NCBI GenBank assembly: GCA_964476605.1
Contig: CAYZBH010000004.1
Location: 704-64,703 of the forward strand
DNA from: an uncultured Thermoanaerobaculia bacterium
GTDB lineage: Bacteria > Acidobacteriota > Thermoanaerobaculia > Multivoradales > JAGPDF01
Direction: 5' to 3'
DNA length: 64,000 nucleotides
The notes under the pieces were generated by a model. The model saw only the letters and a list, made by a program, of their open reading frames with translations, had not been told where the DNA came from and did no database searches. Of the stretch, positions 13,844-54,613 are shown piece by piece (the first letter of the stretch is position 1; each line of letters opens with the position of its first letter). The position numbers and the translations under genes were made by a program.

Positions 13844-13855
13844 GAGAGCGACGAG

Positions 13856-15000: not shown

Positions 15001-15037
15001 AATCGGCTGGCACCTCACTGGCCCCGGCTGGCACTCA
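15001..15037. repeat. REP-like element (AATCGGCTGGCACC plus degenerate second half-site CCGGCTGGCACT)
   Basis: Intergenic, between pilT and the convergent gene ending at 15068. Confidence 0.55.
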
Positions 15038-25905: not shown

Positions 25906-28900
25906 TGTGCGCCAAGCGATCGATGTTCGGCGACGGCCAGAGGCTGGTTGCGAGGTTGCTGATCGCCGCCTCGCTCCTGCCGACCGGGCCGGTGATGGGC
26001 CTGGGTCTCCTCGCGCCCGAGGAGCTCGGAATCGCCGTCGTGGAGCGCGTCCCCCTCGACGGGCGAGAGCTCACCGTCCGGGTGCGCACCACCACCTTCG
26101 ACGTCGTTCGCGATCGGGCCGCGCGAGTCTGGAGCAGCTGGCCGCCGCGCTTCGCGCGCTTCAGCGTTTTCGAGCTGCCGACGTGGATTTCGGCTAGGGG
26201 GGGCTCGGGCGGGTCGCTCCCGTTCACCGGTGGCGGCCCTAGGAACGCGCTGCTGCGCTGGCTGCAAGCGGACGGCGCGACGACCTCGGGCTCCTCGGTC
26301 CCTGCGCCGCAGGCGCAACCCGCTGCCGGCGATCCCTCGGACCCCTGGGGGATTCGCGAGGGATGGCGGCGGCCGGTCCTTCCGGCGCCACCGACGCCTC
26401 CGGATTTCGCTCTGCCTTCGCCCGGCGGGGCGGCGAACGCCGTCGCGCGACCGGGGACGCTTCGGCCGGCGGCGCCGGTGCCGCTCGCGCCGGCGTGGAA
26501 TCTGGTTTCGATCTCGTGGACGCCGGGCGATCCGTCGCCTGCGGCGGTGCTCGCCCCGGTCGCGTCGTCGATCGTCCGCGCGTTCGCCTTCGACGCTTGC
26601 GATCCCTCGGATCCTTGGAAGCTTTACGACCCGAGCGACCCGGGTGAGAGCGACCTCGCCGCGATCACGCCGGCGAAGGGGTTCTGGCTCGAGACGACGG
26701 GCGCCTCGACGATTCCGGAGGCGGGGCCGGAGCCGGCCGAGACGTCGATTCCGCTCTGCGTCGGCTGGAATCTCGTCGGCTTCCCCCGCTCTTCGTCGCA
26801 GGCGGTCGCCACGGCGCTCGCGACGATCGCCGGCCGCTATCTCCGTGTCTTCGGGTTCGATCCGAGCGATGCCGCCGACCCCTGGGAGGTCTACGACGTC
26901 GGCGTGCCGGCGTGGGCGAACGACCTCCAGGAGATGCGTCCCGGACGCGGCTACTGGATCTACGCCACCGAGGCGACGACCCTGGTGGTCTCGAACTCGA
27001 CCGATGCTCCGACGGTTTCGTTCGTCGCGCCGGCCGATCTCGCCGAGGTCACGGAGCGGGCGCCGGTCGTCGGGACGGTGCGCTCGACGTCGCTCGCCGG
27101 GTGGGAGCTCTCCTTCCGCGAGGCTGGCGTGGGAGGTTGGACCTCGCTCGCCACCGGCATTGCGCCCGTGGAAGCGAGTCCGCTCGCGACTTTCGATCCG
27201 ACCCTCCTCGAGAACGGGCTCTACGAGCTGCGGCTGCACGCGGTCGACACGCTGGGCCAGGTGGACGAGGCGACGATCGCGCTCTCGGTCGAGGGGCAGC
27301 AGAAGATCGGGCACTTCTCGCTCACCTTCGTCGATCTCGAGGTGCCGCTCGCCGGGCTGCCGATCCAGGTGCTGCGCGGCTACGACTCGAGGCGACGCGG
27401 CTCCTCCGGCGACTTCGGGTACGGGTGGAAGCTCGAGCTCAAGAGCGGCACGCTCCGCCACAACCGGATCCCGGGCGAAGGGTGGCAGCTCGCGGGGGGC
27501 TTCCTGCCGTGCGAAGCCTCGTACGAGCTCGACTCGCACCAGTCGACGGTACGTCTCTCGGATCGGGAGGTCTACCGCTTCCGGCCGGTGCTCTCGAGCC
27601 TCACACCGACGGCGGGGGGATGCTTCGCGACCTTCGGCTATGCGTTCGTGGACGGGCCGATTCCCGGTGCCACTCTGGAGGTCGTCGGAAACCGCCAGGT
27701 CTTCTACACCAACGGCGGCACCCAGCTCGTCGACACCGAGAGCTTCACCCTCTACGAGCCGGCGAAGGTCCGCCTGAGAACTCGCGACGGCCGCCAGTTC
27801 GAGCTCGACCGGCCGAACGGCGTCACCCGAATCGTCGACGCCAACGGCAATCGCATCGACTTCACGCCGACCGGCATCAGCCACTCGAACGGCGTGTCGA
27901 TCGTCCTCGAGCGGGACGGGCAGGGGCGGATCACCCGCGTCGTCGACCCGGCGGGAGCGGAGCTCCTCTACGGCTACGGTGGATCCGGGGACCTCGCGAC
28001 GTTTACCGATCGCGCGGCGAGCGTCACCAGCTTCGCGTACGGCGCCGGGCACTATCTGACGGAGATTCACGATCCGCTGGGGCGGACGCCGATCCGCAAC
28101 GAGTACGGTCCCGACGGGCGGCTCACGCGGCACGTCGATGCCTTCGGGCACGAGATCCTCTACGACCACCAGCTCGACGGCCGTCGTGAGGTGGTGACCA
28201 ACCGGCTCGGCGCCTCGCGCCTGCTCGACTACGACGCTCGCGGCAACGTCGTGCACGAGGTGGACGAGACGGGCCTCTCGACCGTTCGCACCTTCGACGC
28301 CGACGACCAGCTCCTTTCGGAGTCGATCGGCGGCCTGCCGGCCACGACCTACGCGTACGACGCCAACCGGAACCTGACGCGCACGACCGATCCGCTCGGG
28401 CACGCGACCCTCTTCACCTACGACGCCAAGGGAAACGTTCTCACGACGACCGACCCGCGCGGCGCGGTGACGACGAACGCCTACGACGCACGGGGCAACC
28501 TCGTTTCGACGATCGATCCGGCGGGCGGCTCCACGGCCTACACGTACGACGCGAAGGGAAATCTCCTCTCCGAGACCGACGCGCTCGGCCACGCGAGCGC
28601 CTTCGTCTACGACGCGCGCGGAAACCTCACGCGCGAGACCGACGCGCTCGGGAGCGTCGCGACCTACAGCTACGACACGCTCGGCAACCGGCGCTCCGAG
28701 ACCCGCACGCGCACGCTCCCCGACGGGACTCTCGAGCCGCAGGTCACGGGCTACATCTACGACGCGATGGGGCGCCTGCTCGCGACCACCGCGCCCGACG
28801 GCTCGGTGACCCGCTCGGAGTACGACGCGTTGGGCAACGTCGCGGCGACGGTCGACGCGCTCGACCGGCGCACCGAGCACACCTACGACGCGCTCGGCCG

Positions 28901-31736
28901 GATGACGCGAACCGACTACGCGGACGGTACGCACGACGCAGCCGGCTACGACGCAGAGAACCGGCGGACGACTTTCATCGATCGCGGGGGCCGGACGACG
29001 ACTTACGAGTACGACGCCGCCGGGAGGCTGCGCCGGACCTACTACCCGGACGGCGCCGTCGTCGAGCAGGTCTACGACGTCGCGGGGCGGTTGAGCTCGA
29101 CGATCGATCCGCGCGCGCACGCGACGGCCTACGGGTACGACGCCGCGGGCCGCCGAACGTCGGTCACCGACGCCCTGGGGCATATGACCTCGTGGAGCTA
29201 CGACGCGGCGGGGAACGCGACGTCGGTGACCGACGCGCGCGGCTTCACGACGGCGTCGCTCTACGACGCGCTGGGGCGGCTCACTCGGACGGTCTTTCCG
29301 GACGGGACGGAGCGGCGGACGGAGTACGACGCGTTGGGCCGCCGGACGGCCGAGATCGACGAAGCCGGGGCGCGAACCGAGTTCGGGTACGACGCTGTCG
29401 GCCGCCTGGTCTCGGTGACCGACGCGCTCGGCCAGGTGACCTCTTACGGCTACGACGAGGTCGGGAACCGGATCGCGCAGACCGACGCCAACGGCCACGT
29501 CACGCGCTTCGAGCTCGACAGTCTCGGCCGTCAGACGAAGCGGATCCTCCCCGGCGGAGCGGAGGAGCGCTTCACTTACGACGCCGCCGGGCAGCGCCGG
29601 ACCCGGACCGCCTTCGACGGGGTGGTCACCCACTACGCCTACGACCTCGCGGGGCGGCTTGCGACGCGCACCTATCCGGGCGGACGCGTCGAGAGCTTCA
29701 CCTACACGCCGAGCGGGCGGCGCGCGACGGCGACCGACGCGCGCGGCACGACGAGCTACGGTTACGACGCCCGGGATCGCGTCACGTCGATCCTCTCGCC
29801 GGACGGCCGGAGCCTCGCCTTCGCCTACGACCTCGCGGGCAACCGCTTGTCGACCACGGCCGATGTCGCTGGGCAGTCCCTTCCGACGCAGTACACCTAC
29901 GACGCCCTCAACCGCCTGGAGACGGTGACCGACCCGGACGGGAAGGTCACGGTGCACGGCTACGACGCCAACGGCAACCGGGAGAGCCTCGCCTTTCCGA
30001 ACGGCGTCGCGACGGTCTACGACTACGACGCACGGAACCGGCTGACGCACCTCGTGGCGGTCTCGCCGGTCTCGGGGGTGGTTTCGAGCTACGCCTACAC
30101 GCTTTCGCCGACCGGCAACCGGGCGCGGATCGAAGAGCAGGACGGGACGACGCGGAGCTACGGCTACGACGCGCTCTACCGGCTGACCGACGAGCAGGTG
30201 ACGTCGAGCCCGGCGCCCGGGAGCCCGACCCTCTGGCGGAACGTCTTCGGCTACGACCCAGTGGGGAACCGCCTGACCCAGCAGCGCACCGAAACGACGG
30301 GCGGCACGCACTCGGTGGCCTACGGCTACGACGCGAGAGACCGCCTGCTCACGGAAGACAGCACGACCTACGGCTGGGACGAGAACGGCAACCTGACCAG
30401 CAAGAGCGGCCCCGAGGGCGCGACCTACGTCTGGGACGACGAGAACCGCCTGACCGCGGTGAACCTCGCGAACGGCACGGTCGTCGAGCACACCTACGAC
30501 GTCGACGGCACGAGGATCAGGACGCGGACGACCCCGGCGACGGGACCCCCCACGACGACCGACTACCTCGTCGACCCCTGGCACCAGACGAGCGCGGCCG
30601 GCCGAGGCCTCGTCCTCAGCCAAGTCATAGCCGAAACCGACGAAGCCGGGAACCTCACCGCCTACCACGTCCGAGGCGACGACCTTCTCGCGACCCTGCG
30701 GCCCAACCCGACGCCACCGCCTGGCGAATCCCCCTGGATCGCGCGCTACCTCCACGCCGAAGGGATCGGGACCGTCCGGGCGCTCACGGACGAGCAAGGC
30801 AACGTCACCGATCGGTACACCCTCGAGGCGTTTGGAACGCTGCTGGATCACCTCGGGGACGATCCGAACGCGTACCTCTTCGCGGGGGAGCCGCTCGATC
30901 CGAATTCGGGCTTCTATTACAACAGGGCGAGGTGGGTGGATTCGAGGGCGGGGAGATTCGAAAGTGCTGATCCCCGCGTTGGATCCAGCTTCGAGCCTCT
31001 GACGCTTCACAGGTACCTTTACGCGGGCGCGAGTGCCACGAACCTTGTCGACCCGTCCGGGGAGGACTTCCAGGCCGTAGCTCTAGCCGCGGTGAACGCA
31101 GCGATCGGAATCCTGCAAACTGCACTTGTCTTCTCCGTTCTTGGTGCAATTGGTGGCGCTGCTGATGCTTACTTCGCCGAAGCTGATGTGGCAGCTGGTT
31201 TTGTCAGCGGGATGAAGGTCGGGTTCGCAACGGGCCTCCTCTGGCGACTCAAGTTCCTGCGGCCAACACTGACGGCACTTGGCCTGACGCTTGGCGCGAC
31301 GGCAACGTTTCAGGCGTTCATGGACGGCGACACAGGGCTCGCACTGTTCAGGGGCATCGTGTTCGTCGCTGGCGTTGCCGGAGTAGTCACGGCTGGTGGA
31401 ACGCATCCCGGCGGAGAGATGATCGTGTATCGCTCGGTCAACTCGGCGACCGGTGAGATCCAATATGTGGGCATCACAAGGAACCTTGCAGCCCGCGCTG
31501 CTGCGCACCTGCGCCAGAAGGGAATCGAAATTGAGCCGATTGGTGGGATTGAGGACTTGAGTATGACCGATGCCCGGAATGTCGAGGAAGCTCTCATCGT
31601 CTACTACGGGCTCGGCAAGAACGGAGGTACGCTGCTAAATAGAATCCACAGCATCTCACCACGAAGCCCAATATACGCTGAGCGGCTCTCTCGGGGCGTG
31701 CAGTTGCTTCGCGGAGCAGGTTACCCAGACATCTAG
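25902..31736 (+). CDS. RHS/YD-repeat polymorphic toxin (Tc-toxin BC-fusion-like): signal/Pro-rich N-terminus, SpvB-like domain, >40 YD repeats, RHS-associated core, C-terminal hydrophobic linker + GIY-YIG-type nuclease toxin domain
   Basis: - Start ATGA overlaps the stop of the upstream adhesin (translational coupling).
- SpvB-like: VPLAGLPIQVLRGYDSRRRGSSGDFGYGWKLEL.
- Dozens of YDxxGNL / YxYDxxGRL repeats.
- RHS core: VDPWHQTS...YYNRARWVDSRAGRFESADP...HRYLYAGASATNLVDPSGE.
- C-terminal ~245 aa is lower-GC and contains GEMIVYRSVNSATGEIQYVGITRN...R...H...E..LI...N (GIY-x11-YVG, R, E, N motifs). Confidence 0.85.
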   Translation: MMCAKRSMFGDGQRLVARLLIAASLLPTGPVMGLGLLAPEELGIAVVERVPLDGRELTVRVRTTTFDVVRDRAARVWSSWPPRFARFSVFELPTWISARGGSGGSLPFTGGGPRNALLRWLQADGATTSGSSVPAPQAQPAAGDPSDPWGIREGWRRPVLPAPPTPPDFALPSPGGAANAVARPGTLRPAAPVPLAPAWNLVSISWTPGDPSPAAVLAPVASSIVRAFAFDACDPSDPWKLYDPSDPGESDLAAITPAKGFWLETTGASTIPEAGPEPAETSIPLCVGWNLVGFPRSSSQAVATALATIAGRYLRVFGFDPSDAADPWEVYDVGVPAWANDLQEMRPGRGYWIYATEATTLVVSNSTDAPTVSFVAPADLAEVTERAPVVGTVRSTSLAGWELSFREAGVGGWTSLATGIAPVEASPLATFDPTLLENGLYELRLHAVDTLGQVDEATIALSVEGQQKIGHFSLTFVDLEVPLAGLPIQVLRGYDSRRRGSSGDFGYGWKLELKSGTLRHNRIPGEGWQLAGGFLPCEASYELDSHQSTVRLSDREVYRFRPVLSSLTPTAGGCFATFGYAFVDGPIPGATLEVVGNRQVFYTNGGTQLVDTESFTLYEPAKVRLRTRDGRQFELDRPNGVTRIVDANGNRIDFTPTGISHSNGVSIVLERDGQGRITRVVDPAGAELLYGYGGSGDLATFTDRAASVTSFAYGAGHYLTEIHDPLGRTPIRNEYGPDGRLTRHVDAFGHEILYDHQLDGRREVVTNRLGASRLLDYDARGNVVHEVDETGLSTVRTFDADDQLLSESIGGLPATTYAYDANRNLTRTTDPLGHATLFTYDAKGNVLTTTDPRGAVTTNAYDARGNLVSTIDPAGGSTAYTYDAKGNLLSETDALGHASAFVYDARGNLTRETDALGSVATYSYDTLGNRRSETRTRTLPDGTLEPQVTGYIYDAMGRLLATTAPDGSVTRSEYDALGNVAATVDALDRRTEHTYDALGRMTRTDYADGTHDAAGYDAENRRTTFIDRGGRTTTYEYDAAGRLRRTYYPDGAVVEQVYDVAGRLSSTIDPRAHATAYGYDAAGRRTSVTDALGHMTSWSYDAAGNATSVTDARGFTTASLYDALGRLTRTVFPDGTERRTEYDALGRRTAEIDEAGARTEFGYDAVGRLVSVTDALGQVTSYGYDEVGNRIAQTDANGHVTRFELDSLGRQTKRILPGGAEERFTYDAAGQRRTRTAFDGVVTHYAYDLAGRLATRTYPGGRVESFTYTPSGRRATATDARGTTSYGYDARDRVTSILSPDGRSLAFAYDLAGNRLSTTADVAGQSLPTQYTYDALNRLETVTDPDGKVTVHGYDANGNRESLAFPNGVATVYDYDARNRLTHLVAVSPVSGVVSSYAYTLSPTGNRARIEEQDGTTRSYGYDALYRLTDEQVTSSPAPGSPTLWRNVFGYDPVGNRLTQQRTETTGGTHSVAYGYDARDRLLTEDSTTYGWDENGNLTSKSGPEGATYVWDDENRLTAVNLANGTVVEHTYDVDGTRIRTRTTPATGPPTTTDYLVDPWHQTSAAGRGLVLSQVIAETDEAGNLTAYHVRGDDLLATLRPNPTPPPGESPWIARYLHAEGIGTVRALTDEQGNVTDRYTLEAFGTLLDHLGDDPNAYLFAGEPLDPNSGFYYNRARWVDSRAGRFESADPRVGSSFEPLTLHRYLYAGASATNLVDPSGEDFQAVALAAVNAAIGILQTALVFSVLGAIGGAADAYFAEADVAAGFVSGMKVGFATGLLWRLKFLRPTLTALGLTLGATATFQAFMDGDTGLALFRGIVFVAGVAGVVTAGGTHPGGEMIVYRSVNSATGEIQYVGITRNLAARAAAHLRQKGIEIEPIGGIEDLSMTDARNVEEALIVYYGLGKNGGTLLNRIHSISPRSPIYAERLSRGVQLLRGAGYPDI

Positions 31737-31744
31737 CGGGAGAG

Positions 31745-32221
31745 TTGCAATTGACAAAGATAGGCGACGTCTTCGGAATCCAGACCAAGATTGGGCTAGC
31801 CCTCTTTCAGGTTACTCACCGCCATTCGCAGCTGGGTCACCTGATCCGAGTTCTTGAAGGTCACTTCTCTGTTTGCCCGGAAGACCTGGAGGTACTAGTG
31901 ACTCGGCCTCATCGATTCCTCACTTTCTTTCCAGTTACTGCCGCCGAGAAGCGAGGCATCATCAGGAAGGTGGGGAGCCTCGGAGTTCCGGAGTCTTGCA
32001 AGGCGTTTCCAGTGTTTCGCGCGGCCGGTGCAACTGATCGAAAGGGAAGGGTGCTGACCTGGTGGCTCTGGGATGGTTCGCGAAGTTGGCCAGCTGGAGA
32101 TTTGAGCGACGAACAGCGAAAGCTCCCCATACGAGCGGTCTGGAACGACACTCTGCTGATTGAGCGGATTGACGCTGGATGGACGCCGGAGTCTGACGCT
32201 AGAGGGGAGAAGATGGGCTGA
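31745..32221 (+). CDS. Putative cognate immunity protein for the RHS C-terminal nuclease
   Basis: 158-aa ORF starting 9 bp after the RHS stop, same strand. Lies in the same low-GC tract as the toxin tip. No signal peptide and no recognisable family. Position and composition are the only evidence. Confidence 0.45.
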   Translation: MQLTKIGDVFGIQTKIGLALFQVTHRHSQLGHLIRVLEGHFSVCPEDLEVLVTRPHRFLTFFPVTAAEKRGIIRKVGSLGVPESCKAFPVFRAAGATDRKGRVLTWWLWDGSRSWPAGDLSDEQRKLPIRAVWNDTLLIERIDAGWTPESDARGEKMG

Positions 32222-32261: not shown

Positions 32262-32600
32262 GAAAAGGTGCCAGCCGTTTCTCCGAAGCTTCTAGAGGCA
32301 TCTTGAATTCGAGAGCGGATCTCTTGGGCAGCAATCTCCCGCGACGAGGTTCTGTGGCGAGATGAAGGGCTCGTGGCCTCGGCAGTAGCGCGCGGAGATT
32401 CGCCCCAAAATGATGCCAACATGGTGCCAGCCGTTTTTCTGGACTGCTGAAGCGAAAAGGGGAAAAGGTGCCAGCCGTTTTCCTAGTTTTCCTAGGCTTC
32501 TTCAGGCATCTTGAATTCGAGAGCGGTTCTCTTGGGCAGCAAACTCTCGCGGCGAGGTTCTGTGGCGAGAAGAAGGGCTCGTGAACAGCGGCGGTAGCGC
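32262..32600. repeat. Direct repeat array, period ~199 bp (2 full copies + partial), each copy beginning with a REP-like GGTGCCAGCCGTTT core
   Basis: 32262-32395 and 32461-32600 align at ~85% (GAAAAGGTGCCAGCCGTTT...CATCTTGAATTCGAGAGCGG.TCTCTTGGGCAGCAA.CTC.CGCG.CGAGGTTCTGTGGCGAGA.GAAGGGCTCGTG). A partial third REP sits at 32423-32438. Non-coding. Lies between the immunity gene and the 3' end of the RAYT gene. Confidence 0.6.
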
Positions 32601-32758: not shown

Positions 32759-33688
32759 CTACCCGGAGGCGAAGCGGCGCGGTAGCGCAGGCGGGAAGGA
32801 GCCCTCGGGGAAGAGGACGTCGAGTGTTCCCGTGCGCAGCCGATCGGCGGCGCGGCGATACGCGTTGAGGAATCCCCGATAGGCCTCGCGGAGGGCCGTT
32901 CGAGCTGTCCGTGAGGCGGCATGGACGAGCGGGGCGGGGCCCTTCTTGAGCCGGTTCGGTTCGTGGTGGGGATCTTGCCGCAACACGCCCTCCCAGCCGA
33001 GCGGTGGCGCTCCCGTCTGGCGTTCCTGGTTGCGCCCTTCCTGCTCGATTCCGTCGACCAGGTCCCAAATGTGGCTCCTCCGCCGTGATTCGGTAAGCCC
33101 TCTCCAGCAAGGGAGTTGCACGAGCTCAAGCGATTCGACCGTGACGAACGCCTCGGGATCGAGGGGAAGGCGCCGGCGGGCTGCGGTGTGCTCGAGCGTG
33201 CGGTCGATCCAGCGGCCGGAAACGGGCTGATTCTCGAGCAGAGCCTTGGCGCAATGGGCGCCGGGCCAGTCGAAGGGAGAAGACACGAGGCCCTCTTTGA
33301 CGCCATGAGCGAGGACGTAGCGGAGGCGAGCGATTTGGGCCTCCTCCTCGCTGGAGACCAGGATCGCTTGGTATCTCCGGCCCCAGAATTTCTCACGCCA
33401 GCGGATGAGCCGCCCGGCTTCGCGGGCGAGATTGGAGTTGAGGTAGTTCATGAAGCTGGCCAGCCGCTGTGCGCTCTCGACGGTCACCAGCAGGTGGAAA
33501 TGATTGGAGAGAAAGGCGAAGGCGTGGAGCTCGACCGGGTAGAGGCGCGCGGCCCGAGCGAGGACGCCGAGCGTCAGGTCGCGGAGGATCGGCGTGGGGC
33601 TGAGAAGGAGCCGGCCCTGCACGGTCCGACAGGTGACTTCGACGAGCGATCCAGGCGGAATGAAGCGCAACCGGCGACACATACTCAC
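32759..33688 (-). CDS. IS200/IS605-family Y1 (HUH) transposase, REP-associated tyrosine transposase (RAYT)-like
   Basis: HUH motif NHFHLLVTV. Downstream conserved W..RRYQAIL segment carrying the candidate catalytic Tyr (REKFWGRRYQAILVSSEEE). ~300 aa. Flanked on both sides by REP-like repeats. Confidence 0.7.
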   Translation of the reverse strand: MSMCRRLRFIPPGSLVEVTCRTVQGRLLLSPTPILRDLTLGVLARAARLYPVELHAFAFLSNHFHLLVTVESAQRLASFMNYLNSNLAREAGRLIRWREKFWGRRYQAILVSSEEEAQIARLRYVLAHGVKEGLVSSPFDWPGAHCAKALLENQPVSGRWIDRTLEHTAARRRLPLDPEAFVTVESLELVQLPCWRGLTESRRRSHIWDLVDGIEQEGRNQERQTGAPPLGWEGVLRQDPHHEPNRLKKGPAPLVHAASRTARTALREAYRGFLNAYRRAADRLRTGTLDVLFPEGSFPPALPRRFASG

Positions 33689-33707: not shown

Positions 33708-33777
33708 TCACTTCTTTCGGAAATCGGCTGGCACCTGGCCGGCCAGAGCTACTTCTTTCGGAAATCGGCTGGCACCT
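33708..33777. repeat. Tandemly duplicated 27-bp REP-containing unit (ACTTCTTTCGGAAATCGGCTGGCACCT x2) immediately upstream of the RAYT start
   Basis: Copies at 33708-33736 and 33749-33777. Confidence 0.6.
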
Positions 33778-46365: not shown

Positions 46366-46776
46366 TCAACTCGTTCGGAGCCGCTCCCAGAACGCACGCG
46401 GCGCGAGGCGGGGGAAGGGCAGGTCGATCTCGGCTTGCAGGAGCTCGCGGTCACCTGTGACGAAGACCTCGGCGGCCGCGGCCGCCGCCTCGGCGAGGAT
46501 CCACGCGTCGTCGGCGTCGACCGGCAGGTCGGCGGCGTGTTCGACACGGGCGACGCGCGCGATGGCGACGGCCTGGTCGCGTAGCAGCGTCTCGATCTCG
46601 TCGAGGGTCGCGCGGGGCAGGCCGAGCTTGCGTTCGAGCACGCCGCCGAGCTCAGCGAGCAGGCGTTCGCCCGCCAGGAGCTCGTGCTCGGCGAGCGTCA
46701 GGGCCAGGAGATCCGAGCAGAGTCCGCGCGTCGCGAAGGCGGCGACGAGGACGTTGGTGTCGAGGAAGACCCTCAA
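46366..46776 (-). CDS. vapC: PIN-domain toxin VapC
   Basis: LDTNVLV N-terminus with Asp4. Acidic residues in TGDRELL. 136 aa. Overlaps the upstream antitoxin gene by 4 bp. Confidence 0.8.
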   Translation of the reverse strand: MRVFLDTNVLVAAFATRGLCSDLLALTLAEHELLAGERLLAELGGVLERKLGLPRATLDEIETLLRDQAVAIARVARVEHAADLPVDADDAWILAEAAAAAAEVFVTGDRELLQAEIDLPFPRLAPRAFWERLRTS

Positions 46777-47003
46777 GAGACGTCGCGGAAGACGTCCTCG
46801 TCGGTGAGATAGCCGCGCGCCTCCGCGATCGGCGCGACCCGCCGGCGCAGCCGCTCGAGCTCCGCGAGCGCGAGCTGCCGCCGAAGCGCCTCTCGCGCGA
46901 GCTCGCTCTTGCTCCGACCCGTCGTCGCGGCTAATTGGGACAACTTGCGATCGAGCTCCCGATCAAGCCGAATCGTCAGCACCGAATCTCGCATGTAGGA
47001 CAT
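46773..47003 (-). CDS. vapB: RHH/CopG-type antitoxin (VapB-like)
   Basis: 76 aa. LTIRLDRELDRKLSQLAATTGRSKSELAREALRRQL is a ribbon-helix-helix. Adjacent to and coupled with vapC. Confidence 0.7.
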   Translation of the reverse strand: MSYMRDSVLTIRLDRELDRKLSQLAATTGRSKSELAREALRRQLALAELERLRRRVAPIAEARGYLTDEDVFRDVS

Positions 47004-47347
47004 TGTAATACGACGGTGGACGACCGGCCAACGGAGTTTTTTCGAGACGCAACTCTTTCCGTTTCAGTAACTTGAGAAACAGCTGGCACCTTTGAGATCC
47101 GGCTCCCGCGACCGCAAGGCTCGACAGCCACTCCTAGCGGCGAGTCTCGAGGCGCGGCAAAGCAGAGAACTACCCCCTGACCCGAGAGTCTTCAATGAGT
47201 GGCACTTGCGACGTCGTGAAGCCGGAACCAAGGTGCCCTCCCAGGATCGCTGTCTTGAAATCAAACAAGGCGCCGCCTGCGCGCTTGAATGGGCGCAAGC
47301 AAAAATGTAAGGTACCGCCTCACGTCTCACATCCCCTAGGAGGTCGC

Positions 47348-48211
47348 ATGGCAGTGGACCTTGAAATGGTGGGCTCAGGCTCCAAGTCCTGGAATCGGCG
47401 CGGTTCCTACCGCGTTGTCCGCACAGACGCAAGCATCAAGACGCTGTACGTGCAGGGCGCGGGCGGCGGAGGTGGCGGGGGCGGTGCGGGTGGAAGCGGA
47501 TACAACGGGTCACAAACGGACAACGCTGGTGGTGCTGGAGGCGGGGCCGGCGCTTACTACCAGGGCTCCCTGGAGATCAAGATAGGGCAAGTGCCAGTGG
47601 GAGTCGAGTTTGTCGTGGTAGTTGGCGGAGGTGGGCAGGGCGGGTCAGGCGGATCTGCAGGTCTCAACGGCAAGGATGGCGACACAGGTGGCGTCACCTC
47701 CTTCGGCAACGCAGATCCTACGATCGGCCGACTCGTCACGCTATTCGGCGGCCAGGGTGGTCGTGGAGGCGGCGGAAGCCAAGCTCACTGGCCAGGAGCT
47801 GGCGGTTCTGGAAGCGCTAGTGTCAGTCTCGGAGGTAAGGCGGGCACGGATGGAGGGATGGGTGGCGGACCAAGTCAGCACGGGAGTCAAGGTCAAAGCT
47901 CAGGCACCGCAGCTGGTGGCGCAGGTGGCACAACCGTAACCGGTGGGACCTATGATCCCCACGCATCGATTCTCGACACCCGCAATGGCGGTGGGGGTGG
48001 CGGCGGGGGTGCTTCGTACGGAAAAGGAGGCAAAGGTGGAAACGGCGGAGACATCTCCGCCGCAACCACTGCGCCTGGACCGGGCTTGGCTGACGGACCA
48101 GAGGTTGGTGGCGGAGGCGGGGGTGGTGGCGGCCTAGGACAAGACTACCAATACGGCGGACGCGGCTCCGATGGGGCCGACGGCTTTTTCACCCTTACGT
48201 GGTCAACATGA
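47348..48211 (+). CDS. Glycine-rich protein (about 45% Gly; poly-Gly runs) in a low-GC island
   Basis: ORF 47195..48211 trimmed to ATG 47348, preceded by AGGAGGTCGC. Repeated GGxGG / G8-9 runs. No obvious signal peptide. The coding region is low-GC despite the Gly codons. Confidence 0.5.
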   Translation: MAVDLEMVGSGSKSWNRRGSYRVVRTDASIKTLYVQGAGGGGGGGGAGGSGYNGSQTDNAGGAGGGAGAYYQGSLEIKIGQVPVGVEFVVVVGGGGQGGSGGSAGLNGKDGDTGGVTSFGNADPTIGRLVTLFGGQGGRGGGGSQAHWPGAGGSGSASVSLGGKAGTDGGMGGGPSQHGSQGQSSGTAAGGAGGTTVTGGTYDPHASILDTRNGGGGGGGGASYGKGGKGGNGGDISAATTAPGPGLADGPEVGGGGGGGGGLGQDYQYGGRGSDGADGFFTLTWST

Positions 48212-48383
48212 GAAGTTGCTCTTGATTGGCTGAGCACTGCTTGTCAATTCGCCGATAACTGCCGTCGCTCAGCGCGATGCCGCACGGAAAGTGGTGGTGG
48301 CCGATTCGTAAGCCGTTCCCCATCAGCGACTTGCGAATCGTGAGCTGCGAACACTTACGGTAACAAACGACTGTCCGGGACTG

Positions 48384-48400
48384 CGAATCGGCTGGCACCT
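48384..48400. repeat. REP copy at the junction between low-GC DNA and a high-GC gene remnant
   Basis: GCGAATCGGCTGGCACCT. Confidence 0.55.
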
Positions 48401-48403
48401 GCG

Positions 48404-48550
48404 AGCACCCCGGACCGCGGCGCCATCGAAGTCGGCAAGCTCGCCGACCTCGTCGCCGTCGCCGGCGACCCGCGCGCCGACGTCAGCACCCTCGAGCACC
48501 GGCTCTGGGTGGCCAAAGGCGGCGACGTGCTGGAGGGGAAGGGCCGCTAA
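48404..48550 (+). pseudogene. 3'-terminal remnant of an amidohydrolase-superfamily gene
   Basis: High-GC 147-bp tract translating in frame to ...GAIEVGKLADLVAVAGDPRADVSTLEHRLWVAKGGDVLEGKGR*. This GxIEVGKxADLV...V..G..V ending is typical of metal-dependent amidohydrolases. No upstream body or start is present. Confidence 0.45.
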
Positions 48551-48676
48551 CGCGGCATGCGAGCCTCGGCCCCGGAATTGAGTAAGCGTGGAGGACCGAA
48601 GGCGCCATGGAGCGGGCGAATCCATCAACCTGGCCCCTTAGCCCCCTACTCTCCTAGCCGGCAGCCTTCGCAGAGG

Positions 48677-49234
48677 TTATTCGTCGTCCGGCATGTCGAC
48701 GGCTAAGTCGTACTCCCGCGACTCTCGAGCGTCCATGGTCACGAGGCGCCCACCGGCCCTGGAGAATTCTCGGGCTCCTGGCGAGACCCAGTAGGCACCC
48801 ACGCGCTCGAATCCGCGAGTGAGGGCTGCGAGAAAACCCTCGTAGAAACGGCCTGATCGACCGCTGCCGTGAAGCGTGGCGACACGTCCCGCGACGAGCG
48901 TGCGATCGCCGTGCAATCCACCGAAGCTGCAGATCAGGGCTAGCGGGTTCTCGCCCTGGTCGACGGCGAAGGTCAGTCGCCCGCCCCGCGGGACGAACCA
49001 CTGTCGCCGCAGCGGGCAAAAGCGAGGCAAGATGAGATAGTCGGGATCTTGGATATGAATCCCGGTGAGACTGTGCCCGAGGCCCGGGACTTCGTGAATC
49101 GCCCTCAACACGGGAACCCTCCAAGAGGAGTAGTGCCCGCACCGCACGAGCTTGATCCGTCTCGCGATCGCAGGGGCATCCAGCCGCTCCTTGATCTCGA
49201 CCCCCGTAGCGAAAAAGTTGAGTTGGCGCGTCAC
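48677..49234 (-). CDS. Hypothetical protein (cassette gene C), low-GC island
   Basis: 185 aa. Starts 13 bp after the stop of gene B. No family recognised. Contains an H-x-x-D (HIQD) motif. Confidence 0.45.
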   Translation of the reverse strand: MTRQLNFFATGVEIKERLDAPAIARRIKLVRCGHYSSWRVPVLRAIHEVPGLGHSLTGIHIQDPDYLILPRFCPLRRQWFVPRGGRLTFAVDQGENPLALICSFGGLHGDRTLVAGRVATLHGSGRSGRFYEGFLAALTRGFERVGAYWVSPGAREFSRAGGRLVTMDARESREYDLAVDMPDDE

Positions 49235-49247
49235 GAATCGAACCAGT

Positions 49248-49742
49248 CTAGGGCAACCACTCGAACTGCACCTGTTCTCCGTCCGGCACGTCGCGAAGTT
49301 GCTCGTGAATGTGGCCGGTGAAGCCGAGGTGCTTCCGCCAGTCGTTGGGAAAGAAGTTGTCGGTCTCGAGCCTCCCGCCGAGGACGGGGAGGAGCTTGGG
49401 GGAGTAGCACTGCCCTTCGGTGAGCGCGATTCCGTTCTCGCGGAGTTCCGCGACCAGGTCGGGAAGAAGCCAAGCGTTGGACACCTCGGCGCGCCGGAGT
49501 TGCTCGCGGAGCTCCTCTAGGCTCCTCGCCGCGCGCTCGAAGGTGCCGCCCATCGCGTCGAGGAAGAACACTTGCTCCCTTCGGAGGAGCCACGTCGGCC
49601 GGACCACGAAGAGGTCCCCCATCGCCGTCAGGAAGAGTGGCCTCGCGCGTCGCCCCACGAGCCACCGCCAGTTCGCGAGCGGATCGTCGGGCCCCGCGTC
49701 GGTGACGGATACGAAGAGATCGCGAAAGGCGAGCGGGATCAT
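49248..49742 (-). CDS. Hypothetical protein (cassette gene B), possibly DUF1851/Tdi1_C-like immunity-type domain
   Basis: 164 aa. GDLFVV...VFFLDAMGGT...LLPDLVAELRENGIALTEGQCYSPKLLPVLGG. The GQCY..K.P..LGG pattern matches my recollection of the DUF1851 family. Unverified. Confidence 0.45.
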   Translation of the reverse strand: MIPLAFRDLFVSVTDAGPDDPLANWRWLVGRRARPLFLTAMGDLFVVRPTWLLRREQVFFLDAMGGTFERAARSLEELREQLRRAEVSNAWLLPDLVAELRENGIALTEGQCYSPKLLPVLGGRLETDNFFPNDWRKHLGFTGHIHEQLRDVPDGEQVQFEWLP

Positions 49743-50242
49743 CCGGGGGCGAGAACGTCTGCGAGCTCGCGGCGGTAGGCCGCGACGAGCTGAAGAGAAC
49801 GGAGGATTGGGCGATGCTCGGGAACTGCGTTGCGCGCCGGGTGAGTGTCGCGTAGGGAAGCGAGGATCTCCCTGAGGAGTTCAGGAACGAGGAGCAACCG
49901 ACCGCCACCGATCTGCTTGACGTTGACCGTACTGGCGTACATGAGCACGGCGATTTGCTCGAGGTTCTTCGGCACCTTAAAGCCACTGAATAGGTCAGGT
50001 ACGTACTTTCGCCCCGCCGCGAACTTCCTCCGGAATCGAGCCTCACGCTTCTCCCAGCTCAGCGCATCGAGCGAGGGCTCGAGCTGAACGAGATGCCTTG
50101 TGTGCGGGTGGAATGCGACGACGTCGAGCTCGCACTCGTAGCCCCCCTTGGCCCGCTTGCCCACTAGGACGTTCCGCCGAACGAAGTAGCCCCGATGTTC
50201 GTACCACTCCGCGATCAGCTGTTCGAGGAAGTTCTGTGCCAT
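49739..50242 (-). CDS. Hypothetical protein (cassette gene A)
   Basis: Trimmed to MAQNFLEQ at 50242 (168 aa). Stop overlaps the start of gene B by 4 bp. Has a GGYECELDVVAF segment that is weakly nuclease-like. No confident family. Confidence 0.4.
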   Translation of the reverse strand: MAQNFLEQLIAEWYEHRGYFVRRNVLVGKRAKGGYECELDVVAFHPHTRHLVQLEPSLDALSWEKREARFRRKFAAGRKYVPDLFSGFKVPKNLEQIAVLMYASTVNVKQIGGGRLLLVPELLREILASLRDTHPARNAVPEHRPILRSLQLVAAYRRELADVLAPG

Positions 50243-50292
50243 TGGGGGCCTTTGGAAGGCGTGGCCGAGGCGGCCGCGACGTGATCGAGCCG

Positions 50293-51201
50293 CTACCCCT
50301 CTCCTTCGAAGTAATCGGAGTCGACACGTTTGAGTTGGTAGACGGCGCGCGGCGAAACGCCGAGATCGAAGTCGATCATGTACTCCGCGAGCTGGCGGCC
50401 GTCGATCAACACGACTCGAGGTTCGATTCGAGAGACGTAATCTTCTGCCTCGGCTGAGAAGACTCCAGTGGTGAGGAACACGCCCTTGCGAGCGCGCTTG
50501 CCATGAAGGGCGCCGACGAACTTCTGGATCTCGGGGCGCCCCACGGTGCCTTCCCATCTCTTTGCTTGGATGTAAATAGCCTCGAGGCCGAGACGATCCT
50601 CGCTGATTACTCCATCGATTCCCTCGTCGCCGGCCCCGCCAATGGCTCGGCCGGCTTCAGCGCGATCGCGCCCGTAGCCCATCTTGAGGAGAAGCTCGAC
50701 GACAAGCTGTTCGAAGAAGCTCGGAGTAGACGCCTTGACCCGATCGAGGAGCTCCGCGGCCAGCTTTGCCCGAATGGTCTGAAACGCGTGCTCGATGCGC
50801 TCCTCGGGCGTTTCTTCAGGCTCGGCGTCATTCCCTGCAACCGGCTTCTCGCGAGGCGCCTGATTCCTCCATGCTTGGAACTCCGGAAACTGAAGCAGAA
50901 AGCGCAGGTCGACACGATTGAGGCCACGCCCGACCACTTCGCGGCCACGCTCCGTGATCCGGAACTGGCCCTCCTTCGGCGACTCGAGCAGCAGCGCCCG
51001 CCCGAGGTGGACCTTGGCCCAGGCAACGCGATTGTCGAACCGCCTCGCGCGGGCACTCGGGAGCAGCTCGGCTCGGTCCTCCGGCGTGAGCGAGAACTCG
51101 GCGGCCAGATGTTCGCGCGCCTCTGCCATGGTGTGCACCAGCCCGTCGTCCGCGAAGCGCAGAAGAGGCAGCATGAGACTCTGAAAGTCAGGAATCGGCA
51201 T
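50293..51201 (-). CDS. mrr: Mrr-family type IV (modification-dependent) restriction endonuclease
   Basis: Mrr_N winged-helix N-terminus (MPIPDFQSLMLPLLRFADDG). Mrr_cat core: GDEGIDGV...EAIYIQAKRW (D...QxK variant). 302 aa. Confidence 0.85.
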   Translation of the reverse strand: MPIPDFQSLMLPLLRFADDGLVHTMAEAREHLAAEFSLTPEDRAELLPSARARRFDNRVAWAKVHLGRALLLESPKEGQFRITERGREVVGRGLNRVDLRFLLQFPEFQAWRNQAPREKPVAGNDAEPEETPEERIEHAFQTIRAKLAAELLDRVKASTPSFFEQLVVELLLKMGYGRDRAEAGRAIGGAGDEGIDGVISEDRLGLEAIYIQAKRWEGTVGRPEIQKFVGALHGKRARKGVFLTTGVFSAEAEDYVSRIEPRVVLIDGRQLAEYMIDFDLGVSPRAVYQLKRVDSDYFEGEG

Positions 51202-51430
51202 GCGGATACTTTATGTCTAACCCCCAAAGCGGCTGATGCGGTCGCCAGCCCAGGTGTAGTTCTTGGCCGCTAGGTTTCCTTAATGTTTGGACCTCGGCTT
51301 CCGGCCTTCGGCTTCGGAGGTGCGGAACCGCCTTTGACAACGATATTGGGGGGCGGCGTGGGCGGCTTGGTCGGTCTCGGCTTGGCGACTTCGCCTTTTG
51401 GCGGCTTCGTTGTAGTCATCTGGGTCTCCC

Positions 51431-51955
51431 TTAGGAAGGGGGGTGAACGCAGTCAAGAACACAGCGAATGCCTGCAATCAGAGCCAGAGCAAGGGCGAGA
51501 GCGACCCATCGACTTGCCGAATACAGACGCTCAGAGCGCAGGTTGTTGCTGTAAGCGTTCGCTGTAGCGGCTTCCACGAGACGGAGACGAAGATGTTCGG
51601 CGAATGCTGCATCTGCGTCGTAGTCCTTGGCGGTGTCCTGCTGGGCTTTGTAGTCCTGCAGCGCCTCGTAGTGCGCCAAGAGATCCTGCGCGGAGGCGAG
51701 GTGCTGCCAGCTAAAGCCGAGGTAGATGCGCACGATTTGCAGGATAGCTAGGACAAGCGAAAAGGCAGCGAGGGTGGCGATCCAGACCTGCATCCTGGGA
51801 GCTGTTTGCCCGCTTGCGGCGTAGACACGGTAGTACTGGGTGAACAGGCCTGCGACGAGCCCGATGCCTACAACCCGCAGGCCTGGTGCAGCGTCCAGTT
51901 GATTTCGCCGGTCCAGCTCTCGGAAGTGAAGTTCTTTTGCGAATTGTAGGTCCAT
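51431..51955 (-). CDS. Hypothetical 3-TM membrane protein with a central ~80-aa charged helical segment
   Basis: 174 aa. TM1: LRVVGIGLVAGLF. TM2: VWIATLAAFSLVLAILQIV. Charged segment: SWQHLASAQDLLAHYEALQDYKAQQDTAKDYDADAAFAEHLRLRL. TM3: VALALALALIAGI. First gene of the minus-strand string that includes mrr. Confidence 0.45.
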   Translation of the reverse strand: MDLQFAKELHFRELDRRNQLDAAPGLRVVGIGLVAGLFTQYYRVYAASGQTAPRMQVWIATLAAFSLVLAILQIVRIYLGFSWQHLASAQDLLAHYEALQDYKAQQDTAKDYDADAAFAEHLRLRLVEAATANAYSNNLRSERLYSASRWVALALALALIAGIRCVLDCVHPPS

Positions 51956-52303
51956 AGCCCCGCCAGAGTTTCGGATCGTGCCGACAACTAGCCGGTGAAG
52001 AGGTGTCGGGCATAGAGCCCTTCTTGCCGCCCAACGCCAGTTGCAGTCGCCAGCGTTTCTGCTGACCCTCCACTAGAGAGCATCGGGGTCTCAGGCGAGC
52101 TCGCCCGAGGCACCACAGGTTCGGGCGCCCGTGCCATTCGGGAAGGAATAAGAGTCGGGCCCGTGAAGCCAGCACTCTTCTTCTTCACGCTCATACCCTA
52201 TTAACGAACACCCCCCCCAAAACGGTCGCGACCCCTCGAAATTTCTTCGGAAGGGGCCGCGGGAGGTGTTTCGGGCCGATACGCCGACCGGGCTGGGGGG
52301 CGT

Positions 52304-54613
52304 CTACCCCCGGTACCGCACGCTCAGGGTGAAGCTCCTTCCGGGCTCGGGGACTTGGACGCCGGTGCGGAAGGGGTCGCGTTGGTAGGAGAGGTGCTCG
52401 CGGTAGGTGCGGTCGAAGAGGTTTTCGAGCGAGCCCAGGAGCCAGAACTTGCCGAGCTCGAGGCCGGCGCGGAGGTTGGCGATCTGCCAGGCGGGGGTGG
52501 GAGTCTCCTGGAGACCCGAGTCCACGCGCGTCTGCTTCGCGGCGGCGACCCCCTCGAGCTCCGCGTACCAGCGGCCGGGTTCGTAGCGGAGGGCGAGGCG
52601 GCCCGAGAGCGGCGAGATCTCCGGGAGATCCCGGTCCACGATGCCGAGCTCCGGGGCGACGTCCCGCGTGGCGCGGAGCCAGGCGATGCTCCCTGACAGG
52701 GCGAGGCGCTCGGCGAGCGGGAACGAGAACGACCCCTCCGCCCCCCAGAGGCGGGAGTCGTGGTTCACGAACGTGCGGGCGCGCGTGTTCATGACACCCG
52801 GGACCATCTCCAGGCGCGGACCGTTCACCACAGTCACCGCGTCGTTCAGTAGGGCGGCGAACGCCGAGAGCTCCACGTTCCAGCGCTCGCCGCCGAAACG
52901 GGTGCCGAGATCGAGCTCCGTCTGCCGCGGCGGCGCGAGCTCCGGATTCCCGACCCAGTCCGTCCCCATCCGGCGGAGCGCGAAATAGCGCTCCTGCGGA
53001 TCCGGCGCGCGCTCCGCGCTCCCGAGACGTGCCGAGAGCTCCAGATGGTCCGTCGGCGCGTAGACCAGGCCGAGGTGCGCCGAGGTCAGCGTGTCCGCGG
53101 CGGCCGTCGCGCGCGTGCGGTGGTAGGCGTAGTAGAGGTCAGCGTCCGCGAGGGCCGAGTCCGCCGTGCCGCGGGCGCGCTCTACCCGGAGACCGGCCTC
53201 CAGATGGAAGCGGCGGGGGAGCGGGCGCGCGAGCTCCGCGAAGAGCGCCGTGCCGTCGAGCCGCGTGCCCGGGAGGCTCGCCTGCGCGCGATAGCCCATC
53301 ATCGCGAGGCTCGTAGCCGCGTCCCACTCCCGCCGGAGCGATTCCAGACCGAGCCTGGGGCCGCTCGCGAACGTCGCCTCGCCGCGCGCGCTCCAGTCCT
53401 CCGAGCGTGCGTCCGTCGCCATCGAATAGGGGCGAGGAGCGGTGGCAGAGGAGACCCGCAGGCGGTCGTCCATCCGATGGTCCACGCGCGACCAGCCGAG
53501 GCTCGCGACCCAGGCGCGCACCGGGCCGGCCGAGCGCTCGGCTCGATAGGTCGCGCGGGCGCGCGTCGCGTCGTCCGTGCGCGCGTCCATCTGCAGATAG
53601 GGGTAGAGCTGCGAGTCGGCCTCCTGGCGCGTGGCTTTGATCTCCAGGCGGTGCCCCGGGCGGGCGATGAAGCCGGCGCCGAACCAGGCCGTGCCGACGT
53701 CAAAGGCGCGCGTGGCGCGCGCGGCCGCCCGGTAGGCGGCGGCGGCCGTGAGCGGGAGGAGCTCCGTGATCGCGCGCCCGTCGCCGTCCTCGTACGGATC
53801 GCCACGCCGGAGGGCGACGCCCGCGTCGAGGCTCAGGCGGTCGTCCGCCCAAGCGACATCCGCCGAGGGAGCGACGTAGCCGAAGGCGCCGGCGGCGACG
53901 CCCGCGTCGACGCGAAGCCCGGGCTCGGGCTTCCGCGAGAGGATCTCGATCGACCCCGCGAGGCCGCCGGTCGCGGCGTCGTTCGGGCCGCGGCGCACCT
54001 CGATCGCCTCGATCTCCGCGAAGTCGACGTGGAAGGCGGGGGGGTCCATCCGATTGGGGCAGGCGCCGTGCAGCGCGTGGCCGTCGATGCGGAGGGCGAG
54101 ATCGTCCCCCTTCCGGCCGCGGAGCACCACGTCGTTGGCGAGCCCCCCCTTGCGGACCATGGCGAGGCCGGGGAGCGCGGCGAGCGCTTCGCCGGCGTCG
54201 CGCGCCGCGCTCTCGCGGATCGTGCGGGCGGCGAGCGCGTCGCGGGAGTAGTTGGTGCGAACTTCAATCCCCTCCGCGAAGCGATCGAGCGGAAGGGTGA
54301 GCGTCACCGCCCCAGGCGCCCCGGCGGCGAGGTCGAGCGCGCTCTCGGGGAGGCCGCCGCCCGGGGGGTGCGCCACCAGGCGGCAGTCGGCCCCCGCGGG
54401 GAGCGGGGCGAGGAGACGCCCGAGCGCGTCGGCCGTGAGCCTCACCGGCGGGGCGTCCGGTGGACAGGCGACCTCGACGACCGCGCGGGATACCGGATCC
54501 CCGGCGCGGTCGACGACGCGGCCGGCGAGGCTGCGTGACTCCACGGCGGGCAGGGCGGCCGCGAGCGCGGGCGCGAGCAGGAGGACGGTGGCGGCAATGC
54601 GAGGGGCGAGCAT
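52304..54613 (-). CDS. TonB-dependent receptor with N-terminal carboxypeptidase-regulatory-like domain
   Basis: Signal peptide. LAGRVVDRAGDPVSRAVVEV (CarbopepD_reg-like). Plug: LPGLAMVRKGGLANDVVLRGRKGDDLALRIDGHALHGAC...IEVRRGP. Barrel. Confidence 0.75.
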   Translation of the reverse strand: MLAPRIAATVLLLAPALAAALPAVESRSLAGRVVDRAGDPVSRAVVEVACPPDAPPVRLTADALGRLLAPLPAGADCRLVAHPPGGGLPESALDLAAGAPGAVTLTLPLDRFAEGIEVRTNYSRDALAARTIRESAARDAGEALAALPGLAMVRKGGLANDVVLRGRKGDDLALRIDGHALHGACPNRMDPPAFHVDFAEIEAIEVRRGPNDAATGGLAGSIEILSRKPEPGLRVDAGVAAGAFGYVAPSADVAWADDRLSLDAGVALRRGDPYEDGDGRAITELLPLTAAAAYRAAARATRAFDVGTAWFGAGFIARPGHRLEIKATRQEADSQLYPYLQMDARTDDATRARATYRAERSAGPVRAWVASLGWSRVDHRMDDRLRVSSATAPRPYSMATDARSEDWSARGEATFASGPRLGLESLRREWDAATSLAMMGYRAQASLPGTRLDGTALFAELARPLPRRFHLEAGLRVERARGTADSALADADLYYAYHRTRATAAADTLTSAHLGLVYAPTDHLELSARLGSAERAPDPQERYFALRRMGTDWVGNPELAPPRQTELDLGTRFGGERWNVELSAFAALLNDAVTVVNGPRLEMVPGVMNTRARTFVNHDSRLWGAEGSFSFPLAERLALSGSIAWLRATRDVAPELGIVDRDLPEISPLSGRLALRYEPGRWYAELEGVAAAKQTRVDSGLQETPTPAWQIANLRAGLELGKFWLLGSLENLFDRTYREHLSYQRDPFRTGVQVPEPGRSFTLSVRYRG

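Follow-up and report, generated by a model that had tools for sequence, protein, structure and literature searches.

The window analysed here is a 64-kb stretch of contig CAYZBH010000004.1 from an uncultured Thermoanaerobaculia bacterium, with a mean G+C content (GC) of 69.7%, and this study concerns a low-GC segment of it at 47.0-52.3 kb, beside the gene of a TonB-dependent receptor. The segment carries genes for a glycine-rich protein, a type IV restriction enzyme (Mrr), a protein with transmembrane (TM) segments and three small proteins that we call A, B and C, together with the remnant of an amidohydrolase gene. These features and the right flank lie as follows (window coordinates; aa, amino acids; ORF, open reading frame; GC3, GC at third codon positions).

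47348-48211, plus strand: glycine-rich protein of 287 aa (35% Gly), the gene with the lowest GC3 of the island (0.58); a longer ORF runs from 47195
48401-48550, plus strand: amidohydrolase 3′ remnant, the last ~49 codons (Pfam Amidohydro_1, positions 305-337 of 345, E 2e-4; GC3 0.94)
48677-49234, minus strand: C, putative orphan immunity protein of 185 aa, whose family pairs with an Rhs- or haemagglutinin-borne nuclease-like tip
49248-49742, minus strand: B, short DUF1851 / Tdi1 C-terminal-domain protein of 164 aa (Pfam T6SS_Tdi1_C, 1.6e-11)
49739-50242, minus strand: A, solitary protein of 167 aa with a PD-(D/E)xK restriction-endonuclease-like fold
50293-51201, minus strand: mrr, type IV (modification-dependent) restriction endonuclease (Pfam Mrr_N 2.9e-28, Mrr_cat 4.9e-35)
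51431-51955, minus strand: TM protein of 174 aa; by hydropathy, two strong hydrophobic segments and a weaker third
52304-54613, minus strand: TonB-dependent receptor (Plug and TonB_dep_Rec on metagenome contig L001), the native right flank, where synteny breaks

The segment at 47.0-52.3 kb is compositionally foreign. Between 47004 and 52303 the GC is 63.0%, against 70.3% in the rest of the window, and no other 5.3-kb stretch of the 64 kb is lower in GC (minimum at 46901), in agreement with the drop described by the first-pass annotation, an earlier reading of the same DNA. The three AT-rich stretches that it had named were likewise recovered, with GC of 54.4% at 48200-48370, 59.8% at 51200-51450 and 50.0% at 52190-52215. 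Native and foreign genes are clearly told apart by GC3, which is 0.89-0.94 in native genes (rhodanese, SRPBCC, vapC, TonB-dependent receptor and SpoIIE); the island genes other than the glycine-rich one have values of 0.65 (TM protein), 0.74 (mrr), 0.75 (C), 0.76 (A) and 0.87 (B). One other low-GC patch is present in the window, at 30.2-32.5 kb, and corresponds to the part of an Rhs toxin gene that encodes the C-terminal tip and to the next ORF.

The amidohydrolase remnant divides the segment into the glycine-rich gene on one side and the co-oriented block C-B-A-mrr-TM (48677-51955) on the other. A truncated amidohydrolase 3′ end had been reported before, and the Pfam match on the plus strand upholds it; because this remnant is native in GC3 and lies inside the segment, a minimum of two separate events, acquisitions or deletions, must have taken place. 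Its 5′ truncation point abuts a copy of a REP repeat that looks split. We found no tRNA and, among the island genes, no integrase-like ORF, and no direct repeat flanks the island. The segment reflects several events, not one mobile element. We consider it probable that accessory genes acquired on separate occasions form a mosaic here beside the receptor gene, consisting of Mrr, the orphan immunity genes C and B, and the solitary gene A.

Comparison with metagenome contigs places the segment at a synteny breakpoint. The nearest syntenic relative that we found, contig L101, encodes a receptor 55% identical to that of the window and has gene order in common with it over window 54.7-63.4 kb. This synteny ends at the 3′ end of the receptor gene, which in L101 is followed directly by genes for a photolyase and two Kup transporters, at 70-78% GC and with no island. 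At a second locus (L100) the receptor is 70% identical and there is no synteny outside the receptor gene, with only ~2.2 kb lying downstream of the receptor there. Nothing to the left of 52.3 kb matched in any metagenome locus found via the receptor. The first-pass annotation had looked to a comparison with relatives, and L101 supplies one that lacks the segment, albeit only a distant one.

That the segment might be ancestral, its lower GC arising from gene content or relaxed selection and not from horizontal acquisition, would fit the REP elements typical of this genome that flank the glycine-rich gene, the near-native GC3 of B (0.87) and the fact that no integrase or att sites were found. 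We regard such an origin as highly unlikely, since GC3 is 0.58-0.76 in five of the six genes against the native range, a truncated native gene lies within the segment, and housekeeping genes occupy the same position in the syntenic relative L101.

The evidence for immunity genes in the segment begins with C. An exhaustive HMMER search recovered 768 cluster representatives of its family at E <= 1e-3, of ~180 aa and aligning end to end, where a word-indexed search had recovered C itself only. These full-length relatives indicate that C is a real gene and that its 185-aa start is correct, and they refute the idea of an ORFan or a non-gene. Searches of the family against Pfam, NCBIfam and PDB sequences gave no match. 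Four of its members, in independent genomes, were found immediately downstream of Rhs proteins: P0142 at a distance of 20 bp (L095/L096), P0149 at 13 bp (L098), P0160 at 13 bp from a 1902-aa Rhs protein of Cohnella yongneupensis (L180), and P0174 at 3 bp from a 1552-aa Rhs protein (L181/L182). Pfam RHS_repeat scores of these Rhs proteins are 1e-120 in L095, 1e-142 in L096 and 4e-102 in L098. In a further independent case, on the Ralstonia solanacearum plasmid pUW163a (L184), the reading frame of a DUF6862 protein overlaps at its end with that of a C homologue and lies in a filamentous-haemagglutinin/two-partner-secretion locus.

All five of these toxins (four Rhs, one haemagglutinin-type) are homologous in their last ~105 residues. 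The Rhs tips are 40-51% identical pairwise, and a search with a hidden Markov model (HMM) of the tip recovers the Ralstonia protein at 1.3e-27. EE, D-x-T-A and R-x-(Q/N)-T do not vary among the tips, whose consensus is ...ELESRGW.IT..G..EEY.P....DLTA.KNGRTLRIQTVDT..DGVTP..RE... (L095/L096, L098, L180, L181, L184). No Pfam or NCBIfam model covers the tip; weak matches to Hjc (0.0022) and XamI (0.078) suggest a nuclease toxin of PD-(D/E)xK type. Since one tip occurs on different delivery scaffolds and is followed each time by the same small protein family, the two have the organisation of a polymorphic toxin-immunity pair, and we think it likely that the C family and the tip form a polymorphic toxin-immunity family that is absent from Pfam and NCBIfam. 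In both respects, the position immediately behind Rhs or haemagglutinin-type toxins and the exchange of one tip between scaffolds, the C family resembles known Rhs/CdiA toxin-immunity modules, from which it differs in that neither the family nor the tip has a Pfam or NCBIfam model.

No toxin tip and no second copy of B or C was found in any reading frame of the window, so C is here an orphan immunity gene, provided that the family assignment holds. Other C homologues also stand alone: on a Hymenobacter plasmid one belongs to an array that also has 'immunity 53' and 'colicin immunity' genes, and further orphans lie among small unknown or toxin-antitoxin-like genes. The adjacency of B and C in the window, without a toxin, is reminiscent of orphan immunity arrays, in which stand-alone C homologues sit beside other immunity genes; compared with acquired interbacterial defence arrays, that of the window has just two genes and no associated recombinase. 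In the cell, C would bind and neutralise the tip toxin when a rival delivers it, and would in this way protect against a rival's variant of the host's own class of Rhs weapon. A was also considered as the cognate toxin of C and was rejected, as a profile-profile comparison of A with the tip gave a probability of 0.2%.

B was previously listed among the genes without assignable function, which does not apply to it: its T6SS_Tdi1_C match scores 44.3 bits against a cut-off of 27.4 bits. A weak local match to the structure of the Tdi1 protein Atu4351 (PDB 6itw) was obtained at E 0.044, and plasmid homologues of B are annotated as Tdi1-domain proteins. Tdi1 consists of a GAD-like domain and DUF1851 and is the immunity protein to the Ntox15 DNase Tde1 (PMC4096383), and orphan tdi genes are common and protective in immunity arrays (PMC10470768). 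This homology makes B most likely a second orphan immunity protein. Like many tdi genes B is an orphan, and it shares with the Tde1-Tdi1 systems of Agrobacterium and Bacteroidales a DUF1851 domain above the Pfam threshold. It departs from them in its length (164 aa against 232 aa for Tdi1), in having no detectable GAD-like domain and in its setting, as no Ntox15 gene adjoins it: its upstream neighbour A is of the PD-(D/E)xK type and its downstream neighbour is C (no scan for Ntox15 covered the whole window). Close relatives of B comprise ten clusters only, all of them orphans in variable contexts. The six contexts that we inspected consist of variable accessory DNA near HicAB, IS110, IS66, recombinase or small Mrr_cat/methylase genes.

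A is a solitary gene, not tied to its neighbours, that has undergone repeated horizontal transfer. More than 1489 homologues are 57-71% identical to it, and the family spans at least ten phyla at this level. We fetched 80 loci with homologues 51-67% identical to A, from Proteobacteria, Chloroflexota, Planctomycetota, Acidobacteriota, candidate phyla, Spirochaetota and Actinomycetota, and detected no relative of B, C, mrr or the TM protein near any of them (tblastn and family HMMs). Downstream of A these loci have housekeeping genes in some cases and unknown genes in others. The A homologue is below its flanks in GC in 60 of 76 loci, by a mean of 6.8 points, the mark of a repeatedly transferred gene, and this also counts against an ancestral origin of the segment. 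A is rare in viral contigs (3 loci) and in plasmids. Its sole recurrent context belongs to a clade of Burkholderiales in which it lies between glcE and glcF of the glycolate oxidase operon, as in loci L004, L008-L010, L015, L018, L020, L030 and others (metagenome-assembled genomes of Burkholderiales/Betaproteobacteria). Eight A loci have a gene resembling N6/N4-type DNA methyltransferases just after glcF.

No Pfam family matched A. Residues E15, E38, D40, E55 and K73 are invariant in the family; the canonical Lys position of the (D/E)xK motif is taken by an invariant Ser (E55-P56-S57), and the invariant K73 is on the next helix. In comparison with AF1548 (PDB 1y88) and FokI/Mrr-like PD-(D/E)xK cleavage domains, A stands alone without a DNA-recognition or sensor domain, has Ser in place of the canonical Lys, belongs to a family outside Pfam and is unusually conserved across phyla. 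The identity across phyla, the GC below that of the flanks and the insertion between unrelated genes could point to an undescribed class of solitary self-spreading nuclease genes, such as a free-standing homing-endonuclease-like gene or a stand-alone defence nuclease, a doubtful proposal that we put forward tentatively.

The stop codon of A overlaps the start codon of B (ATGA), and a pairing of the two was also considered, with A as a small nuclease toxin and the coupled DUF1851 protein B as its inhibitor in a toxin-immunity or toxin-antitoxin pair. Besides the overlap, the PD-(D/E)xK fold of A with its invariant E15, E38, D40 and E55 would suit such a toxin, and nucleases are known to be neutralised by DUF1851 proteins (PMC10470768). 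The neighbourhoods argue otherwise. A B-family HMM found nothing among the neighbours of the 80 A homologues, where A is followed by unrelated housekeeping or unknown genes, among them glcF and, by sequence reading only, hemB, kdsA, gyrB and rluA; conversely, no A-like gene lies upstream in those B-homologue contexts that have gene-level Pfam or record annotation. An identity of 57-71% across phyla is moreover atypical of a toxin, and the partner toxin of Tdi1 is Ntox15, which is not of the PD-(D/E)xK type (PMC4096383). We therefore consider an A-B pair improbable, and on the mosaic reading the ATGA overlap appears to be incidental.

The remaining gene of the block with a recognisable function is mrr. 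The first-pass annotation's type IV assignment holds: both Mrr domains are present, PADLOC recognises the protein over its full length (mREase_IV, 8e-82, residues 1-300), and the catalytic D...QxK motif is intact ('EGIDGV...YIQAKRW' in the translation). As far as its sequence tells, Mrr is an intact, conventional type IV restriction enzyme that would cut modified foreign DNA. It shares the Mrr_N winged-helix domain, the Mrr_cat domain, the full-length mREase_IV match and the D...QxK motif with the E. coli Mrr-type enzyme, and shows no notable difference from it. Mrr was the only match when PADLOC, a check that had been proposed for this region, was run on 10 region proteins; several recognised defence systems in a cluster were not found. 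The only other defence candidate is a VapBC module, which lies outside the low-GC DNA.

The genes TM, mrr, A, B and C are indeed co-oriented on the minus strand, with gaps of 229, 50, -4 and 13 bp (the first had been given as 230 bp and the others correctly), and we infer that they are expressed as one operon. We also considered whether the five genes, or A-B-C alone, form a single undescribed multi-gene anti-phage system. Co-orientation with short gaps and the ATGA overlap are compatible with one system, as are the adjoining Mrr, the nearby VapBC, the nuclease fold of A and the foreign composition of the segment. Against it, the genes do not occur together in any other locus examined: no relative of B, C, mrr or the TM protein lies at any of the 80 A loci, and homologues of B and C occur in unrelated contexts, A and C being absent from the six B-homologue contexts and A and B from the ~ten C-homologue contexts. 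Each of A, B and C is found elsewhere without the other two, so that the supposed three-gene cassette falls away. The GC3 of B (0.87) against that of A or C (~0.75) suggests different histories, and PADLOC recognised nothing beyond Mrr. A single system is accordingly very improbable. The earlier description of a 'defence/immunity island' stands insofar as one gene of the segment, mrr, serves phage defence and two, B and C, are of the toxin-immunity type, and fails as regards a single system. We see no sign of an undescribed defence mechanism: the immunity here would be of a described kind, directed at toxins from other bacteria, not an anti-phage mechanism new to science.

Several points weigh against the mosaic with its two orphan immunity genes. 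The comparison with L101 rests on a relative whose receptor is 55% identical, and not on a close relative. Toxin adjacency was seen in five of ~10 C contexts, in a non-random sample of long contigs, and two of seven metagenome contexts as well as two Hymenobacter plasmid contexts of C homologues have no toxin. For B, no adjacent toxin was found in any of the six homologue contexts, so that its role derives from domain homology, and no GAD-like N-terminal domain was detected (no Pfam match at E <= 0.01 in residues 1-72). Toxin binding and protection by C and B are predictions from these comparisons. The tight spacing of the block (50, -4 and 13 bp) is also compatible with a functional operon, and the mosaic reading does not account for A and the TM protein.

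To the left of the low-GC DNA lies the VapBC module, followed further along by REP copies; a possible small gene lies within the block.

46366-46776, minus strand: vapC, PIN toxin (Pfam PIN_3, 3.4e-10; GC3 0.89)
46773-47003, minus strand: vapB, ribbon-helix-helix antitoxin (Pfam RHH_1, 1.2e-9); its stop overlaps the vapC start (TTGA)
47044-47096, plus strand: degenerate REP copy left of the glycine-rich gene (repeat families D5/D6; motif at 47080-47090, with 1 mismatch)
48303-48402, plus strand: REP copy, seemingly split by ~40 nt with 'GCGAATCG' duplicated on both sides by alignment (exact motif at 48389-48399)
51270-51419, minus strand: possible Pro/Lys-rich ORF of 49 aa (MTTTKPPKGEVAKPRPTKPPTPPPNIVVKGG...) in the gap between TM and mrr, with a Shine-Dalgarno-like AAGGGAGA
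32759-33688: RAYT, an IS200-like Y1 (HUH) transposase (Y1_Tnp, 1.4e-7)

VapBC is a real module, as first annotated, with the ribbon-helix-helix antitoxin gene upstream of and overlapping the PIN toxin gene. Its placement in the island does not hold, since its DNA (46366-47003) has a GC of 70.5%, ends before 47004 and represents native-GC DNA to the left of the low-GC segment. The glycine-rich gene was called identically, at 287 aa, on metagenome contigs L001 and L002; its product has a sub-threshold match to Pfam Gly_rich_2 (E 0.0064) over most of the profile and no phage match. The TM protein had no significant match in Pfam, PADLOC, NCBIfam or PHROG, and one weak plasmid match at noise level. 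Its description as a multi-TM, three-TM protein is borne out for two strong hydrophobic segments, the third being weaker. The 49-aa ORF had no Pfam match and was not called on the metagenome contigs. An Rfam search found nothing, and promoter and terminator scans stayed at chance level.

The REP motif CGGCTGGCACC, with the family core motif GCGAATCGGCTGGCACCTG, occurs in 31 copies in the window, compared with 2.9 expected; the copies lie between genes and run in both orientations (for example at 15004, 32267, 33725, 36417, 43331, 44545, 45765 and 48389). The RAYT gene, to which this REP family belongs, is flanked by inverted copies of the motif, at 32267-32477 (minus) and 33725-33776 (plus), and the over-represented motif and a RAYT gene with such flanks justify the name REP. 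Two 97-nt direct repeats (32279-32375 and 32487-32583), 90% identical and 208 nt apart, sit in the interval from the presumed Rhs immunity ORF to the RAYT gene, where REP copies alternate with them. The island had been described as bounded by REP copies at 47081 and 48384. Both copies exist, and they bracket the glycine-rich gene only; no REP copy occurs between 48.4 and 64 kb, so there is none at the right edge (52.3 kb). The seemingly split copy coincides exactly with the point at which the amidohydrolase remnant is truncated at its 5′ end, and could be the scar of a recombination event. An integron cassette array, which a ~1.2-kb repeat at 43.3-48.4 kb and the occurrence of B homologues in arrays of small co-oriented genes had prompted us to consider, was ruled out because the repeat is the genome-wide REP motif in both orientations, with RAYT in the window. 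A sigma-54 promoter read from the TGGCAC of the REP motif (-24-like) was also rejected, as by reading TTGC is on the wrong side.

The host has an Rhs locus of its own outside the island, which spans 16336-32221 of the window.

25902-31736, plus strand: host Rhs toxin of 1944 aa (RHS_repeat; YD repeats)

Its pre-toxin hydrophobic module matches that of the L095 Rhs protein (32% identity, E 2e-10) and is common to the Rhs proteins of L095 and L098. Its tip differs from that paired with the C family, being GIY-YIG-like (5.8e-4) and low in GC. The toxin gene lies behind one for a 3189-aa adhesin-like protein, with DUF11, PKD, FG-GAP, Calx-beta and HYR domains, in the same arrangement as in L180 and L181. 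After the toxin gene comes a low-GC ORF of 158 aa (31745-32221), which matched no family and presumably encodes the immunity protein cognate to the host Rhs. Elsewhere in the window, two diverged direct repeats at 13255-14722 (240 nt and 152 nt, 70-73% identical, spacing 1065 nt) indicate two tandem paralogous genes (ORFs 12482-13843 and 13856-14932).

What is new here is the in silico assignment of the C family and the tip as an uncatalogued toxin-immunity pair, and the recognition of A as a conserved, solitary family with a nuclease fold. On the mosaic reading, a plausible 'unknown cassette' beside a restriction enzyme would be a chance juxtaposition of independently mobile genes. For the uncatalogued C family of ~768 clusters we propose a role in immunity to a nuclease-like tip, itself uncatalogued, that is delivered by Rhs and CdiA proteins. 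Orphan immunity genes influence which cells prevail in contact-dependent competition within microbial communities, and fuller catalogues of toxin-immunity pairs would improve the annotation of soil and sediment metagenomes.

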